Source of the DNA: Escherichia phage BEU50
Sequence record: OM632671.1
Strand: one strand, 5' to 3'
Length of the DNA: 64,000 bases
Of the stretch, positions 14,533 to 21,604 are shown piece after piece. How positions within the stretch are numbered: the first letter of the stretch is position 1; each line of letters opens with the position of its first letter. Both the position numbers and the translations under genes were made by a program. The notes under the pieces were generated by a model. That model saw only the letters and a program-made list of their open reading frames with translations, was not told where the DNA came from and made no database searches.

Positions 14533-15081
14533 ATGGCTAAAATTATTTTAGTAGATGGCCCGGATAATGCTGGTAAAACAACTTTCATTAATGACATAAT
14601 GGAAATTAGTGAAAGATATGTAAAGATTGATTTCCCTAAACGAACAGTTGATGGACGTTTCGATGTTAAGTCTCGAAATGAAGTTGGCTGTTTCGAAACG
14701 ATGTTGAATTATTTAGACCCTACTAAGATTTATCTGTTAGACCGTGGATATATTAGTAACTGGGTTTACGGACGTATTCGACAAGATGCGGACTCTGTTC
14801 TTGACGTTTATGAACAGGATTATGTTCGTCTTTGCCAAAACCATGATGTGTTCACAATTATTTTAACACGTAACGAAATGACTGAAAGTTTTGAAGACGA
14901 CCTTATTACTTTGTCTTCATTCGGTTTTAATACAGTCATTTCACATTTTGAAGAGTTTGCAATTCATAACAAAATCCAAACGTATCAATTACTTAATCAT
15001 GATGGTGCTAACAAAGTTATAGGATTTAATGCAAGCGAACGTAATGTTTTGATTACAGAAATCATCAAATGGGCTCGTTAA
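14533..15081 (+). CDS. P-loop nucleotide/nucleoside kinase-like protein
   Basis: Walker A VDGPDNAGKTTF (thymidylate/dNMP kinase-like), 182 aa. Confidence 0.5.
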   Translation: MAKIILVDGPDNAGKTTFINDIMEISERYVKIDFPKRTVDGRFDVKSRNEVGCFETMLNYLDPTKIYLLDRGYISNWVYGRIRQDADSVLDVYEQDYVRLCQNHDVFTIILTRNEMTESFEDDLITLSSFGFNTVISHFEEFAIHNKIQTYQLLNHDGANKVIGFNASERNVLITEIIKWAR

Positions 15082-16695: not shown

Positions 16696-18138
16696 GTGGT
16701 AGAAATTATTTTGTCTCATCTAGTATACGACCAGGCTTATTTTTCTAAGGTCTGGCCTTATATGGATTCTGAGTATTTTGAGCGTGGACCGGCAAAAAAC
16801 GTCTTTAAAATTATAAAGAGCCACGTTAACGAATATAATGCAATGCCATCTATCAATGCATTAAAGGTGGCTTTAGATAACAGTTCTTTAACTGAAGCCG
16901 AATATAAAGGAACTTCAGACCTAATTGAAAAATTGGCTGATACTCCTGAAGACCACGAATGGTTGGTTAAAGAAACTGAGAAATATGTCCAGCAAAAAGC
17001 GATGTATAATGCTACATCCAAAATCATTGAGATTCAGTCTAATGCTGAACTACCTCCAGAACAACGTAACAAGAAAATGCCTGATGTAGGAGCTATTCCT
17101 GATATTATGCGTCAAGCACTTTCAATTTCGTTTGATAGTTATGTTGGACATGACTGGATGGAAGACTACGAAGCACGCTGGCTTTCTTATCTAAATAAAG
17201 CACGTAAGGTCCCGTTCAAATTAAACATTCTGAATAAAATCACTAAAGGTGGTGCTGAAACAGGTACACTAAACGTTTTAATGGCTGGTGTTAACGTTGG
17301 TAAATCTTTAGGCCTTTGTTCACTTGCTGCAGATTATCTTCAAACAGGTCATAATGTTCTTTATATTTCCATGGAAATGGCTGAAGAAGTTTGCGCTAAG
17401 CGTATAGATGCAAACATGCTTGACGTATCACTTGATGATATCGATGATGGTAACGTATCTTATGCTGAATATAAAGCCAAGATGGAAAAATGGCGTTCAA
17501 AATCCACATTAGGACGTTTAGTAGTTAAACAGTATCCTACTGGTGGAGCTAATGCTAATACATTTCGTGCATTGCTTAATGAGTTAAAACTTAAGAAGAA
17601 CTTTGTGCCATCTGTAATCATGGTTGATTACTTAGGTATTTGTGGGTCTTGTCGTATCAGAGTTTACACTGAAAATAGCTACACATTAGTTAAAGCTATC
17701 GCAGAAGAACTTCGTGCATTAGCAGTAGAATCTGAAACAGTTCTATGGACTGCAGCTCAAGTAGGACGTGCAGCATGGGATGCTTCGGATATGAACATGA
17801 GTGATATTGCAGAATCAGCAGGTTTACCAGCAACGGCAGATTTCATGTTGGCCGTAATTGAAACCGAAGAACTTGCACAAGCTGAACAACAACTTATCAA
17901 ACAAATCAAATCACGATATGGTGATAAGAATAAGTGGAATAAATTCCTGATGGGTGTACGTAAAGGCAACCAGAAATGGATTGAGATTGAGCAAGAAGGC
18001 ATGAACACACCTAACACAGTAAATGAAAACGCAGGTGCTCAGATGCGTCAGGCAGAGGTGAATCGTACGGAACGCGTAGGTAAAGCCAAAGCAACACGGG
18101 CTGACCTAGATAGCTTAGCCAATGAGTTAAAATTTTAA
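16696..18138 (+). CDS. 41: Replicative DnaB-like helicase gp41 (GTG start)
   Basis: Walker A GVNVGKS, DnaB-family core; RBS AAGGAG 6 nt upstream of GTG. Confidence 0.9.
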   Translation: MVEIILSHLVYDQAYFSKVWPYMDSEYFERGPAKNVFKIIKSHVNEYNAMPSINALKVALDNSSLTEAEYKGTSDLIEKLADTPEDHEWLVKETEKYVQQKAMYNATSKIIEIQSNAELPPEQRNKKMPDVGAIPDIMRQALSISFDSYVGHDWMEDYEARWLSYLNKARKVPFKLNILNKITKGGAETGTLNVLMAGVNVGKSLGLCSLAADYLQTGHNVLYISMEMAEEVCAKRIDANMLDVSLDDIDDGNVSYAEYKAKMEKWRSKSTLGRLVVKQYPTGGANANTFRALLNELKLKKNFVPSVIMVDYLGICGSCRIRVYTENSYTLVKAIAEELRALAVESETVLWTAAQVGRAAWDASDMNMSDIAESAGLPATADFMLAVIETEELAQAEQQLIKQIKSRYGDKNKWNKFLMGVRKGNQKWIEIEQEGMNTPNTVNENAGAQMRQAEVNRTERVGKAKATRADLDSLANELKF

Positions 18139-18144
18139 TAAAAA

Positions 18145-18163
18145 GGAGACTTCGGTCTCCTTT
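18145..18163 (+). terminator. Stem-loop GGAGAC-UUCG-GUCUCC followed by UUU after gene 41
   Basis: 6-bp GC-rich stem, UUCG tetraloop, short U run. Confidence 0.5.
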
Positions 18164-18167
18164 CGGG

Positions 18168-18197
18168 GTTTACATCTTCCTCTAGGCATGATATGAT
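18168..18197 (+). promoter_or_regulatory. Early promoter (GTTTACA, 18 nt, TATGAT)
   Basis: Matches the recurrent GTTTAC-N18-TAnnnT pattern seen before many early genes here. Confidence 0.4.
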
Positions 18198-18226: not shown

Positions 18227-18601
18227 ATGAATATGTCTCAAGCAATTTTTACTGCAATCACCGAAAACACAACTGTTGAAGTAGTTTCTCCACTGGCAAC
18301 CTACGTTATTCTTGCTCCTAAAACTATTGTATCTCGTATGGAAAACATGGGCAAACGTATCGTACAAATAGTTGGAGCCGGAAATCAAAAACTTGATTAT
18401 CTACGAACCATCAAAGCTTATGAACATTTCCAACTCGAAAAAGGTTCTCCTATCCAGGTAGAACTCGTAAATGGTGATATCGTTCGAGCAATGTTCCATC
18501 ATTTCTATGCATTGAATGACCCATCTAAAGCGGTTCGTTTAATTGCATACGATGCAAACCAAAACGAAATCAACGCAGATATATCTAAATTACGTTTTTA
18601 A
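18227..18601 (+). CDS. Hypothetical protein (124 aa)
   Basis: ORF with RBS AAGAGGA before ATG. Confidence 0.4.
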   Translation: MNMSQAIFTAITENTTVEVVSPLATYVILAPKTIVSRMENMGKRIVQIVGAGNQKLDYLRTIKAYEHFQLEKGSPIQVELVNGDIVRAMFHHFYALNDPSKAVRLIAYDANQNEINADISKLRF

Positions 18602-18656
18602 GTTTACTTCTCCAGTAGTTGTGTTATTATAGATCTATCAACTACTGGAGAACAAA

Positions 18657-18974
18657 ATGAAAACCATCGATTGTAAAGCAGAATTTAAGATTTTTTATCA
18701 CGGTTCAAGTAGTTCAGCTAACATCGAAAACATGCTTTGTCCTCCTGAGGAAACAGGAGTTCTGTCTGAAACTGGACGTAAGAAAAACTTGGATCGTGTA
18801 TTCTTTACTGAAGATATCGGTTTAGCAAAGATTTATGCAGGACGAGCAGCACGCTCTTATGGAGGTGAACCACGTCTCTACCGAGTAATTTCTCCGGTAG
18901 ATGTAGTTCAAATGAATGATACTAAAGGCGCTACAGTTTATCACGCTGAATGGGCATTTTGCGAGGAAATATGA
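18657..18974 (+). CDS. Hypothetical protein (105 aa)
   Basis: ORF with ATG; no confident family. Confidence 0.4.
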   Translation: MKTIDCKAEFKIFYHGSSSSANIENMLCPPEETGVLSETGRKKNLDRVFFTEDIGLAKIYAGRAARSYGGEPRLYRVISPVDVVQMNDTKGATVYHAEWAFCEEI

Positions 18975-19172
18975 GCAAATTAACTAAAGTTACTTTTATC
19001 GGTTGGTTTAAAAGCGGTGAGATGTTCACTAAAGATATGATGTTATCAGGTGATCGCGAAGAAATCGAGTGGGTTACGGTACAACTTGCTGAAGTGAACA
19101 AAGCATTAGTTAAAGCATTTGTTAATGACGAGAAAGTTTTCGAAGCAGATTTTCGATAATTTTAAAATAACT

Positions 19173-19202
19173 GTTTACAAGCCCCACATACTGTGTTACT
19201 AT
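19173..19202 (+). promoter_or_regulatory. Early promoter (GTTTAC, 18 nt, TACTAT)
   Basis: Consensus-like elements about 30 nt upstream of the 19231 start. Confidence 0.4.
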
Positions 19203-19230
19203 CTTTCTATCAACTACAGAGGAAATTGAA

Positions 19231-19599
19231 ATGAAAAAATTAATCGCTTTAGCAATGGTATTCGGATTAACCGGATGTGGTGCCCATGGCTTTATCCCTA
19301 ATAACGTTGGCCAACTGATTTACAATCCGAATGTTAAACAGTACGACCAACCTAAAGTTGAAGTGGAAGACCCGGTTACTGTAGGTAATCGAATGATTCA
19401 AGCTGATGCCCATGCTCAACGTTATCGTGACTCTGATACTGTAGCATTGTCAAAAGAACAACGCGTTAAAGAACATTGCTTACAGGCTACTGAAATCGCA
19501 TTCATTCGCTATGTTGAAACAACTGGTAAAGAGCCTACCCAGAAACAAATAGCGAATAACTACGTCCAGTGTATTGAACGTTTAAACAAATTTAATTAA
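19231..19599 (+). CDS. Putative lipoprotein (122 aa)
   Basis: Signal peptide with lipobox MKKLIALAMVFGLTGCG. Confidence 0.45.
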   Translation: MKKLIALAMVFGLTGCGAHGFIPNNVGQLIYNPNVKQYDQPKVEVEDPVTVGNRMIQADAHAQRYRDSDTVALSKEQRVKEHCLQATEIAFIRYVETTGKEPTQKQIANNYVQCIERLNKFN

Positions 19600-19660: not shown

Positions 19661-19909
19661 ATGGAATTATTCGTAGCTAGTTCAGTAGCAGTTTTAATCG
19701 CAGGTATTGGTTCAATCATCATTTACATGTTGCCTTGGGTAATCGCACTTATTCGTGGCACAAAAGGCACAACAGCAATCTTCTTTGTATCTTTACTCTT
19801 TAACTGGACGATGGTTGGTTGGATTGGAACTTTAATTTGGTCTATCGTTGCCGAAAAGAAATCTGCTCAGCAGCCTCAACAAGTAATTATTATTCGCGAA
19901 AAAGAATAA
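19661..19909 (+). CDS. Superinfection immunity (Imm)-family small membrane protein
   Basis: Two TM segments and motif YMLPWVIALIRG...NWTMVGWIGTLIWSIV resembling the Imm family pattern (LPxxIA..R ... GWT.IGW..A.IW). Confidence 0.45.
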   Translation: MELFVASSVAVLIAGIGSIIIYMLPWVIALIRGTKGTTAIFFVSLLFNWTMVGWIGTLIWSIVAEKKSAQQPQQVIIIREKE

Positions 19910-19972: not shown

Positions 19973-20266
19973 ATGAAAAAGTTATCATTGGCAGCAATCT
20001 TACTTGCAGTATCATGTGCACCGGCTCCAGTTACGGCAGGTTATGATAAAGACCTCTGTGAGTGGTCAATGACTGCAAATCAAGAAGATGTTGAACAACA
20101 AATCTTCTCTGATATCATGAACATCACTAAACGAGACCGTCCTAATATGGTTAATAAAGTTGTTGAACAACTTAAGTCTGGCGGTATCATGCAGTACAAC
20201 TATGTTTTGTATTGTGACCCTAATTTCGATAACAAAGATATCGTAACCGAAATCACAGGTGAATAA
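19973..20266 (+). CDS. Periplasmic Sp (spackle)-like protein, 97 aa with signal peptide
   Basis: Signal peptide MKKLSLAAILLAVSCAPAPVTA; size and GYDKDLCEW...YNYVLYCD content fit what I recall of T4 Sp. Confidence 0.45.
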   Translation: MKKLSLAAILLAVSCAPAPVTAGYDKDLCEWSMTANQEDVEQQIFSDIMNITKRDRPNMVNKVVEQLKSGGIMQYNYVLYCDPNFDNKDIVTEITGE

Positions 20267-20918
20267 TATGATTTATTATATGCACAAAAATGCGCCATTT
20301 AAATATGGTAAATTTCCTAATGCACAATGTTATAATATAACGCCGAATGAAAATAATAACGGATACCATCTCGGTGTAATTTTTGTAATTGTTAAAGATA
20401 ACGAAATCGTTGCCTGGGCAGATTTTAAAGGTACAACATATGACGTTAATCCTGTGCCTTTCACATATTACAATATAATGGATTTGGCATATGATTATAA
20501 TTGGTTTAATCATGACACGTTGGCTCATATTGAAGGTGTAGGATTTGACATCTCTTATTCTAGTTATTCATTATGTCCTATGAGCCGAGCTCACGGTAAA
20601 GATGCATCATATCTTTCAATTCGGAAACGTGTAAACTTCAAACGTAGTACAGAGTATGTTGGTGGACTCTTTGTTAAAGATAATAAAATAACCCGTATTA
20701 GTTATCCTCTAAGTGTAGGCCAAAAAGATGTTGATGTTGATTTGGACTTAACTGAAAATAACATTAATCGTATTGCTTCTGTATATTTTGATATCGATGA
20801 AAAAATTGTAGTGTGTGGATATGAATTACCACCTGAAGAAAAGGCTGAAGCAATTGAAGTCGAATTAGAAATTTCTGTTGATGACCAAATATTTAATGCA
20901 TTTATGAATCGAGGTTAA
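20259..20918 (+). CDS. Hypothetical protein (about 215 aa)
   Basis: ORF; true start may be an internal ATG shortly after 20259. Confidence 0.4.
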   Translation: MNNMIYYMHKNAPFKYGKFPNAQCYNITPNENNNGYHLGVIFVIVKDNEIVAWADFKGTTYDVNPVPFTYYNIMDLAYDYNWFNHDTLAHIEGVGFDISYSSYSLCPMSRAHGKDASYLSIRKRVNFKRSTEYVGGLFVKDNKITRISYPLSVGQKDVDVDLDLTENNINRIASVYFDIDEKIVVCGYELPPEEKAEAIEVELEISVDDQIFNAFMNRG

Positions 20919-20919
20919 A

Positions 20920-21117
20920 ATGACTACTGCAATTTGCACTGGTTCTAAAATTAGTGTTTTTACAAGTTTTGAAGATTATGAAGTTGTTTCAAAACACCAA
21001 TGCCATATTAGCGTAAAAGCTAATGACGGTGTAATTTGGAATATTCCACAGTATGAAGGCACTACATATGAAGTCACAGATATAAATGGTGACAAAGCGA
21101 TCTTTGTAATTGATTAA
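20920..21117 (+). CDS. Hypothetical protein (65 aa)
   Basis: ORF starting 2 nt after the previous stop. Confidence 0.3.
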   Translation: MTTAICTGSKISVFTSFEDYEVVSKHQCHISVKANDGVIWNIPQYEGTTYEVTDINGDKAIFVID

Positions 21118-21604
21118 ATATACTCAGGAGGTACCTATGGGTATTATTAACACTGCAATAGATTCTGTTTATGCATATAAGTTTATTCGACTAATGCAAA
21201 AACCTTTTACCGAATGGAAAGCATACGAAGCCAAAATCATCGATGAACGTGGAAGTGTTCTTAAACGTCCTTCTACTCCCGAAGAAAAAGCGGCGTATAC
21301 ACCTTTTCATGCTTCAGTTCGTTCAATGAAGCGAATGATGAGCACTGTTCCGGGTCTTAATGGAATGGCCTCAATGATGTCTGCCTGGAGTGCTGTAGCT
21401 TCACGCTATAACATTACGGAAGAACAACAGAAAGAAATATTTAAAGAACTCCCTTTATTTGAGGATATGGTTGCTGGTGATTCAGGCGGCAGTCCTCAAG
21501 CTATTGCATCAGGAACAACTACAGGTGCAGTCGTAAATAAAGGTCCAGACCAAATTCCTTCCAAGAAAAGAAAGCGAATTAAAGTAAATATTAATAAGTT
21601 GTGA
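21110..21604 (+). CDS. Hypothetical protein (about 155-164 aa)
   Basis: ORF; RBS AGGAGG precedes the internal ATG at 21137. Confidence 0.35.
   Translation: MIKYTQEVPMGIINTAIDSVYAYKFIRLMQKPFTEWKAYEAKIIDERGSVLKRPSTPEEKAAYTPFHASVRSMKRMMSTVPGLNGMASMMSAWSAVASRYNITEEQQKEIFKELPLFEDMVAGDSGGSPQAIASGTTTGAVVNKGPDQIPSKKRKRIKVNINKL

Follow-up and report, generated by a model that had tools for sequence, protein, structure and literature searches.

The 64,000-nucleotide stretch of Escherichia phage BEU50 DNA analyzed here (sequence record OM632671.1; hereafter, the window) contains, immediately downstream of the gene 41 replicative helicase, a block of three small open reading frames (ORFs) for which no protein family had been assigned in an original prediction made from the sequence. 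We find that this block is real but only partly unassigned, and that its contents are largely explained. The third gene encodes Dmd, an already known protein; the second, ORF2, was recognized computationally as encoding a putative minimal ADP-ribosyltransferase (ART) related to Arr; and the first, ORF1, is an ordinary orphan. Taken as a whole, the reading that we consider probable, albeit with clear reservations, is that the block was built from cassettes, with ORF1 encoding a small binding protein and ORF2 a minimal Arr-like ART that is coupled to Dmd. The genes of the block and its upstream boundary are as follows, with sizes in amino acids (aa).

16696..18138, plus strand: gene 41, replicative helicase (480-aa ORF; Pfam DnaB_C, 1.2e-17; gp41 in the RB69 annotation), upstream boundary of the block
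18227..18601, plus strand: ORF1 (RB69ORF041c), orphan restricted to its lineage, 124 aa, with a small beta-barrel predicted for the C-terminal half
18657..18974, plus strand: ORF2 (RB69ORF040c), 105 aa, phrog_2110, predicted minimal Arr-like protein of the ADP-ribosyltransferase fold
18971..19159, plus strand: ORF3, dmd (discriminator of mRNA degradation), 62 aa, Pfam PF17587; the start overlaps the ORF2 stop (ATGA)

All three ORFs, of 124, 105 and about 62 aa as originally described, lie on the plus strand, and homologues of conserved length were found for each of them. Codon differences among four close relatives, counted as synonymous to nonsynonymous, were 21:3 for ORF1, 33:7 for ORF2 and 20:14 for dmd; together with the conservation, these ratios rule out chance ORFs. 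The claim that no family could be assigned holds for ORF1 only, because the 62-aa product was identified as Dmd by a plain Pfam scan and the 105-aa product was assignable by profile and fold searches. Remote-homology and structure-prediction searches thus yielded an Arr-like fold for ORF2 and Dmd for ORF3 but left ORF1 without a family, and the homologues found in the homology searches were not housekeeping proteins. The analysis established gene identities, homology, fold, distribution and the regulatory anatomy of the block.

The structural model of ORF2 predicted by AlphaFold (predicted local distance difference test score, pLDDT, 86.2; predicted template modeling score, pTM, 0.78) retrieved Arr from the PDB as the top Foldseek matches (9iaf and 2hw2; probability 1.00; query-normalized template modeling (TM) score, 0.57-0.58; E-value, 0.015), followed by Tpt1/KptA RNA 2'-phosphotransferases (probability 0.84-0.95) and then by other ART toxins. 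In the BFVD library of viral structures, ORF2 is matched by a 94-aa 'Ms Rifampin ADP-ribosyl transferase' (TM-score 0.72/0.80). Arr, the best fold match, is also the only significant PDB match of ORF2 at the level of sequence profiles: a broader profile of 43 family members matched Arr (2hw2/9iaf) with an E-value of 1.6e-4 and Arr-2 (9iba) with an E-value of 3.6e-3. Individually, 16 of the 43 relatives match the Pfam family Arr-ms (PF12120) at E-values of at most 0.01, and the ORF2-like stretches of four fusion proteins (P0129, P0134, P0151 and P0161) reach Arr-ms scores of 26.9-29.4 bits, with the cut-off at 25. The exact ORF2 sequence carries the name 'ADP-ribosyl transferase' in UniRef and likewise in a few GenBank records.

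The profile alignment, which covers residues 13-82 of the 143 residues of Arr, pairs H19-G-T of Arr with H15-G-S of ORF2, E40-x-G42-R43 with E38-x-G40-R41, and I48-Y49-I-T51 with V48-F49-F-T51. Across 220 relatives, G16 is invariant (100%), and H15 (99-100%), E38 (97-100%), R41 (96-100%), F49 and T51 (each 97-100%), Y60 (99-100%), and G69 and G70 (95-100%) are conserved. ORF2 and Arr share the H-G-[ST] motif, the E-x-G-R loop, the aromatic-x-Thr strand, the Ala-rich helix that follows it, and a G..Y.V.P strand. ORF2 can be tentatively described as a stripped-down, 105-aa homologue within the Arr and Tpt1/KptA branch of ADP-ribosyltransferases that appears to have kept the hallmarks of the NAD-binding site, namely, H15-G-S, the E38-x-G-R loop, F49 and T51 on strand 2, and Y60.

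Unlike Arr, ORF2 itself falls below the Pfam threshold, lacks the C-terminal third of the protein, carries Phe in place of Tyr49, and has a conserved basic K-K-N extension of the loop. The architecture of full-length Arr (about 140 aa) is not found in ORF2, and the free-standing members of its family are typically 95-110 aa long. The two also differ in where they are encoded, the ORF2-type domain by lytic phages and in polyvalent proteins, and Arr by resistance elements. Given the truncation and the missing Pfam match, ORF2 does not appear to belong to Arr proper but rather to a sister family of the same fold. We see no reason to expect rifamycin as its substrate. The next-best fold matches, Tpt1/KptA, are more distant (TM-score 0.37-0.43), with no sequence-level match to ORF2, which also lacks their N-terminal winged-helix RNA-binding lobe (about 105 vs about 180 aa). 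Nevertheless, phage homologues of KptA exist, and 2H and NUDIX domains, which process products of the ADP-ribose type, are found fused to some relatives of ORF2.

Several observations weigh against the assignment of ORF2 as an Arr-like enzyme and against the overall reading of the block. ORF2 itself has no Pfam match at an E-value of 1 or below, and none was found in NCBIfam, PADLOC or among PDB sequences. A profile of the T4-like ORF2 clade alone found nothing in the PDB, and the match to Arr appeared only once distant relatives from a search of 1.84 billion proteins joined the profile, so that the link to Arr is transitive, with a Foldseek E-value of only 0.015. The active site of Arr reportedly consists of His19, Tyr49 and Asp84, with Asp84 being catalytic. 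The strand-2 Tyr49 is replaced by Phe in 97-100% of the ORF2 family, and, with ORF2 ending about 35 residues short of the Arr C-terminus (105 vs 143 aa) and the alignment stopping at E82 of Arr, no counterpart of Asp84 could be fixed. Among the candidate acidic residues, position 82 is acidic in only 81% of the near and 56% of the far relatives, and invariance of E103 is confined to the T4-like clade. The proposed class of targets, a nucleic acid or a small molecule, is extrapolated solely from relatives and fusion partners, and no experiment on any member of the ORF2 family was found in the literature. For ORF1, no evidence was obtained in support of a function, and half of its structural model is of low confidence. 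With respect to the missing acid, the H-H-h clade of ARTs has roles in RNA repair and in modifying small molecules as well as soluble ADP-ribose derivatives (Iyer, Burroughs, Anantharaman, Aravind 2022, Viruses 14:1977); the name of this clade refers to a hydrophobic third active-site position and, therefore, the absence of an acidic residue need not mean a dead enzyme.

The family of ORF2 is widespread. In a set of 5.8 billion proteins, 149 close clusters were found, with 62-99% identity among the 120 listed, and ORF2 is present in 609 phage records, including phages of Escherichia (215), Klebsiella (116), Acinetobacter (68) and Aeromonas (62), as well as of Vibrio and other hosts. Across phages of these five genera, ORF2 homologues are 62-72% identical, which points to a conserved target. 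A search of 1.84 billion representatives with the profile of the T4-like clade yielded 222 relatives. Of the 150 that were listed, 89 stand alone as proteins no longer than 150 aa; in the others, the domain of about 95 aa is C-terminal (33), internal (23) or N-terminal (6), in proteins of up to 3,924 aa. The fusion partners include ART-PolyVal, ddrB-ParB, LPD23, CHAP, lambda-type portal, GNAT and Toprim domains, and the ORF2-type domain is directly followed by NUDIX in two proteins and by a 2H/Acb1-like phosphoesterase in one. By analogy, NUDIX and 2H partners, which process ADP-ribose-type products, would fit KptA-like or small-molecule chemistry. The ORF2 family is distinct from ART-PolyVal, given that both domains are found side by side in three proteins (P0132, P0165 and P0188), and also from the R-S-E type Alt/Mod enzymes.

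A scan of genome contigs detected only five ORF2-like loci. Three of these look like contigs of T4-like phages in bacterial assemblies, and two come from genomes of Patescibacteria (candidate phyla radiation, CPR), where free-standing genes encode ORF2-like proteins of 143-148 aa with an N-terminal extension of about 45 aa (L074, 4902-5348; L075, 4923-5354). One of the latter lies beside a 347-aa ORF that resembles an integrase or transposase, a resemblance noted without a check against family libraries. The two genes of Patescibacteria are uninformative with regard to the function of ORF2. In Acinetobacter phage Acj61 (L006, 1-1458), the ORF2 homologue is located about 1 kb downstream of a gene for nicotinamide phosphoribosyltransferase, an enzyme of NAD salvage, a weak contextual link between the mini-ART and the NAD+ supply of the phage.

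The genomic neighborhood of ORF2 was surveyed in 62 IMG/VR loci encoding its relatives, and neighbor clusters were counted over 70 loci, including the reference loci. The genes directly downstream fall into 26 unrelated clusters, and those upstream likewise into 26. The most frequent downstream neighbors are Dmd, in 13 cases when the reference loci are counted, a small membrane protein, in 9, and gp30.6, in 4, followed by many singletons; a Cys-rich peptide of 41-46 aa follows ORF2 in four loci, and a similar one was seen in locus L004. Because its neighbors are so varied, ORF2 probably acts as an independent effector, as the same domain would within injected polyvalent proteins. The polyvalent proteins of phages and conjugative elements are thought to be delivered together with DNA and to act immediately on host targets (Iyer et al. 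2017, J Bacteriol 199:e00245-17). ORF2 resembles the polyvalent ART modules, as well as Alt, ModA and ModB of T4, all of which are ARTs that phages bring into play as soon as infection begins, but, unlike the polyvalent modules, it is a free-standing early gene rather than part of a fusion packaged in the virion.

Catalytic activity of ORF2, the kind of its target and any counter-defense role are what we infer from these data. Most likely, ORF2 consumes NAD+ at an early stage of infection and thereby ADP-ribosylates a conserved target in the host; to judge by the closest relatives, this target would be the end of a nucleic acid or a small molecule, and not a protein. A more specific proposal is that ORF2 is an active ART of the Arr/KptA lineage that modifies an RNA or DNA end or a small, NAD-derived or immune-signaling molecule in the first minutes of infection; that this target is universal, hence the presence of the family throughout Straboviridae; and that co-translation with Dmd in the RB69 lineage provides for joint protection of phage mRNA or translation from RNA-directed host defenses. 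We regard this combination of claims as unlikely to hold in full.

The identification of the third gene is straightforward. The longest ORF starts at 18950 and encodes 69 aa, whereas the ATG preceded by a GAGG Shine-Dalgarno sequence gives a product of 62 aa. This product matches Pfam PF17587 with an E-value of 2.7e-20 (72.9 bits, with the cut-off at 27), residues 4-62 aligning with positions 3-59 of the 60-position profile, and the Dmd family of PHROG with 8.7e-33. Among PDB sequences, it matches 5i8j_A (E-value, 5.8e-36), with 59 of 62 residues identical (about 95%), and Dmd of T4 (5hy3 chain B; E-value, 2.8e-17). By sequence, we identify ORF3 as Dmd, a known anti-defense protein rather than a new one. 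The T4 protein has been shown in the literature to be a phage-encoded direct inhibitor, that is, an antitoxin, of the host RNase toxins RnlA and LsoA. In BEU50, dmd is found in the 41-61 region, where T4 and RB69 also have it, and the protein shows no notable difference. The difference lies upstream: here and in RB69, dmd is translationally coupled to the gene for the ART-like protein, whereas dmd of T4 directly follows gene 41.

Some relatives carry two tandem Dmd-like genes after ORF2 (L008, 3754-4152; L017, 4319-4873; L021, 4295-4830). In a Dhakavirus record, one Dmd-like gene is annotated as 'translational repressor protein', and in L017 and L021, the second Dmd-like ORF, located 3' of the first, is longer. 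The tandem genes, along with the higher nonsynonymous rate of Dmd, suggest diversification of the antitoxin.

The regulatory anatomy of the block consists of two stem-loops and two early promoter-like sites:

18142-18163, plus strand: hairpin downstream of gene 41 with a stem of 9 bp and a UUCG loop (free energy (dG), -12.8 kcal/mol; z, -2.7), terminator-like or RNA-stabilizing, the stem-loop half of an element of the PeSL (promoter-early stem-loop) type
18168-18197, plus strand: early promoter-like site P1, GTTTACA-N17-TATGAT, TG-extended, preceding ORF1 and fitting the PeSL consensus
18602..18630, plus strand: early promoter-like site P2, GTTTACT-N16-TATTAT, TG-extended, preceding ORF2 and dmd
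18608-18621 / 18639-18652, plus strand: 14-bp stem (inverted repeat I1) in the spacer between ORF1 and ORF2 (dG, -21.2 kcal/mol; z, -4.98; 0 of 200 shuffled sequences as stable)

The terminator and promoter that had been noted after the helicase gene were thus both recovered, the former as the hairpin at 18142-18163 and the latter as P1. A simple terminator scan did not call this hairpin, owing to an interrupted T-run; the only call of that scan, at 18742-18759, lies inside ORF2 and is not credible. A terminator is annotated at the hairpin in the GenBank record of the near-identical phage NBG1, and a related hairpin, GGAGC-TTCG-GCTCC, follows gene 41 in a relative (L011). The designation of these genes as early is likewise well supported: the window contains 17 copies of the T4-type early-promoter signature GTTTAC-N16-18-TANNNT, compared to 2.69 +/- 1.62 expected, with 16 of the 17 copies on the plus strand and one in each of the gaps that precede ORF1, ORF2, imm.1, imm and sp. 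The -10 element and the 5' untranslated region (UTR) of P2 are repeated upstream of imm.1 (direct repeat D1, 79% identity). One promoter-like site is located upstream of ORF2, and there is none between ORF2 and dmd. The block would accordingly comprise two transcription units, one from P1 with ORF1, and one from P2 with the translationally coupled ORF2 and dmd.

The 5' arm of the 14-bp stem overlaps P2, and the 3' arm contains the GGAG Shine-Dalgarno sequence of ORF2, whereas RNA from about position 18636 onwards, lacking the 5' arm, is predicted to be unfolded (dG 0). In read-through RNA initiated at P1, the stem would hide the ribosome-binding site of ORF2, resulting in poor translation of ORF2 and dmd, whereas RNA initiated at P2 would lack the 5' arm and would be translated well. 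Folding predictions hence suggest that the stem with the embedded promoter (within 18596-18662) could act as a switch between an untranslatable read-through RNA and a translatable promoter-proximal RNA.

In L011, a relative, just one element, made up of hairpin, promoter and 5' UTR, connects gene 41 with ORF2. In the window, by comparison, ORF1 sits between two copies of the promoter element, the second of which has kept the same 5' UTR as in L011, and the hairpin at 18142-18163 directly precedes the promoter at 18168-18197, as in PeSL cassettes. For the PST/T4 pair, PeSL elements have the promoter consensus TTTACW-N17-TAYWAT (Arbiol et al. 2010; Comeau et al. 2014), and, as in such cassettes, each small gene in this region is flanked by a stem-loop and early promoters of this type. 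Unlike in the PeSL definition, the promoter in the spacer between ORF1 and ORF2 lies inside the stem-loop, the 3' arm of which, with the Shine-Dalgarno sequence of ORF2, is the possible translational switch. The 41-61 region as a whole was likely assembled from promoter/stem-loop cassettes, each unit being expressed early, and ORF1 is of value as a clear-cut case of gene insertion between two such cassettes.

The ORF1 protein is 100% identical to RB69ORF041c and is found in 134 phage records, in 132 of them at 95% identity or more and in two at less than 60% (one of these, from a Dhakavirus, at 36%). A profile search of the 5.8 billion proteins yielded six clusters, and the gene is always located between gene 41 and ORF2. 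The 21 synonymous and 3 nonsynonymous differences point to purifying selection on ORF1 rather than to diversification. Searches of Pfam, NCBIfam, PADLOC and PDB sequences gave nothing usable for ORF1; weak matches to phosphoheptose isomerase (E-value, 0.079), HSBP1 and YmzC, and one to 3-dehydroquinate dehydratase (17 bits, with the cut-off at 329), were rejected as due to chance. The AlphaFold2 model has a pLDDT of 69 overall, above 80 for residues 55-124 (a helix and four strands) and below 50 for the N-terminal half. Foldseek gave weak matches to Tudor, SH3-like, Hfq and WYL barrels (E-values of at least 0.036 over about 54 aligned residues), with TM-scores of about 0.65-0.73 only when normalized to targets of about 55 aa, and no enzyme signature was detected in the sequence and fold searches. 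As a weakly founded guess, ORF1 might be a small protein that binds or inhibits a component of the host or of the phage. A role as a partner of ORF2 was rejected: ORF1 occurs only upstream of ORF2, but ORF2 is found without ORF1 in nearly all loci.

Three alternatives to the proposed role of ORF2 as an independent, active effector have to be considered. That ORF2 is a vestigial ART devoid of catalytic activity, acting as a binder, that is, a sponge or decoy for NAD+, for ADP-ribose-derived immune signals or for a host protein that recognizes ARTs, appears quite unlikely. Phage sponges of nucleotide signals, such as Tad1/Tad2 and Acb2, are known, and the missing C-terminal third of Arr, the strand-2 change from Tyr to Phe and the lack of a family-wide acidic residue at the expected catalytic position would all be compatible with such a loss of activity. 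However, H15-G16, E38, R41, T51 and Y60 are nearly invariant even in very distant relatives, a pattern resembling that of an active site; the H-H-h clade, the roles of which include modification of small molecules, takes its name from a hydrophobic third position, so that lack of the acid would not have to imply loss of activity; and in polyvalent proteins, the ORF2-type domain is found beside other enzymes and beside NUDIX and 2H domains capable of processing its products. Somewhat less doubtful, although still unlikely, is the possibility that ORF1, ORF2 or both are dedicated inhibitors of a specific host defense system, like the neighboring Dmd, TifA and AdfA. Indeed, the original suggestion that the region is of an anti-defense kind is correct insofar as dmd, imm, sp and adfA are present, with tifA joining them in RB69, and ORF1 and ORF2 lie within this dmd-(tifA)-imm-sp-adfA region, each with an early promoter of its own; furthermore, ORF1 is a lineage-restricted, cassette-like insertion between two promoter copies, as would be expected of an accessory gene involved in an arms race. 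Location alone is weak evidence, however, and no sign was found that ORF1 or ORF2 counters defense: neither shows homology to known anti-defense proteins or a PADLOC-related signal, ORF1 evolves under purifying selection without diversification, and ORF2, at 62-72% identity across host orders, is far more conserved than the direct inhibitor Dmd (20 synonymous to 14 nonsynonymous differences).

The third alternative has a published precedent. An ART-Dmd toxin-antitoxin pair has been predicted in T4-like phages, with an ART gene of the 'p0068-family' immediately upstream of dmd in T4-like phages of Escherichia, Shigella and Salmonella (Iyer et al. 2022). This arrangement, with the ART gene directly 5' of dmd, fits ORF2 and dmd in the window, and ORF2 probably is the ART discussed there as the partner of Dmd; no 'p0068' locus tag was found among the names of the ORF2 clusters, and p0068 was placed in the H-Y-[EDQ] clade, whereas the closest matches of ORF2 are Arr and KptA. 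Under this scenario, ORF2 would be a toxin of the ART type, perhaps with RNA as its target, that Dmd binds and neutralizes besides or instead of RnlA/LsoA, the two forming a phage-borne type II toxin-antitoxin pair. The genes are directly adjacent in one operon, with the ORF2 stop and the dmd start overlapping (ATGA, 18971-18974), and they abut wherever both are present in a sampled locus (10 IMG/VR loci, RB69, NBG1 and a Dhakavirus). Nevertheless, we consider such a pair very unlikely, because consistent co-occurrence across genomes was not observed. Dmd abuts ORF2 in only 10 of the 62 IMG/VR loci, all with an ORF2 at least 86% identical to that of the window, and the other 52 have no Dmd within 4 kb of ORF2. 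Dmd is present in 800 phage records, essentially all from enterobacterial phages and most of them of the T4 type at less than 60% identity, whereas ORF2 is also common in the phages of Klebsiella, Acinetobacter and Aeromonas; among the Escherichia, Shigella and Enterobacteria records, about 490 more contain Dmd than ORF2, and T4 has dmd without ORF2 at this position. In addition, the downstream neighbors of ORF2 are unrelated to each other, the toxin gene comes first in the order, and why a phage that is strictly lytic should have to neutralize a toxin of its own is not obvious. Thus, ORF2 and Dmd have largely independent distributions, their pairing is confined to one sub-lineage, and the survey weakens the notion of an obligate pair, or of a functional link between the two.

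Returning to ORF2 as an independent effector, the most useful question to ask of this block concerns its substrate. If ORF2 is an active ART, then, at 105 aa, it would be smaller than Arr (143 aa), the smallest of the ARTs with which it was compared. This putative mini-ART is encoded in about 600 sequenced T4-like phages and recurs in injected polyvalent proteins of phages and plasmids. Its target, once found, would define a fourth kind of ART in T-even biology, beside Alt, ModA and ModB, and would also settle whether, as predicted in the literature, Dmd has a second role as the antitoxin of a phage-encoded ART.

With regard to the genomic context, a stretch of 1.15 kb around the block is 99.7% identical at the DNA level to Escherichia phage a20 and 98-99% identical to many further T-even phages of the genus Mosigvirus (RB69-like); the source phage is a Mosigvirus. 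The order of genes in the window is the same as in RB69: uvsX, 40, 41, RB69ORF041c, RB69ORF040c, dmd, imm.1, imm, sp, 61.2, and on to 61; the RB69 annotation itself reads 41-ORF041c-ORF040c-dmd-61.4-imm.1-imm-sp-61.2. In T4, dmd directly follows gene 41, with no ORF2 at this position and, therefore, ORF1 and ORF2 are additional genes in the RB69-type lineage. The block belongs to the variable 41-61 region, which harbors the known counter-defense and superinfection-exclusion genes dmd-(tifA)-imm-sp-adfA. Downstream of dmd, the following features were identified:

19160..19230, plus strand: junction lacking tifA/61.4 relative to RB69 (pairwise alignment with RB69, clean gap of 206 nt); the early promoter of imm.1 comes next (19173-19202)
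19231-19599, plus strand: imm.1, DUF5481 lipoprotein (Pfam DUF5481; RB69 annotation)
19661-19909, plus strand: imm (Pfam Imm_superinfect; RB69 annotation)
19973-20266, plus strand: spackle, sp (Pfam T4_Spackle; RB69 annotation)
20280-20918, plus strand: adfA/61.2 (Pfam AdfA; RB69 annotation)

The gene tifA/61.4, which encodes an inhibitor of ToxN and is located 3' of dmd in both T4 and RB69, is missing here, with the junction at 19157-19175, and the close relatives H21, H24, H25 and H30 carry about 206 extra bases at this point. From the sequence, the absence of tifA predicts a greater sensitivity to ToxIN than that of RB69. AdfA of BEU50 has Arg at position 164, the RB69-type allele, whereas T4 has His; according to papers from the LeRoux laboratory, the R164 allele fails to neutralize DarT1. 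The missing tifA and AdfA R164 are thus testable predictors of sensitivity to ToxIN and DarTG1, respectively.

Elsewhere in the window, the 61.1-like gene at 21137-21604 is a single ORF of 155 aa when started from the ATG at 21137, which is preceded by an AGGAGG site, or of 164 aa from the TTG at 21110. In the RB69 record, this gene is split into ORF032c and 61.1 owing to a 1-nt difference in an A-run near window position 21285. Upstream of uvsX, at 14533-15081, a 182-aa ORF with a P-loop motif (GPDNAGKTT) corresponds by position to RB69ORF045c.

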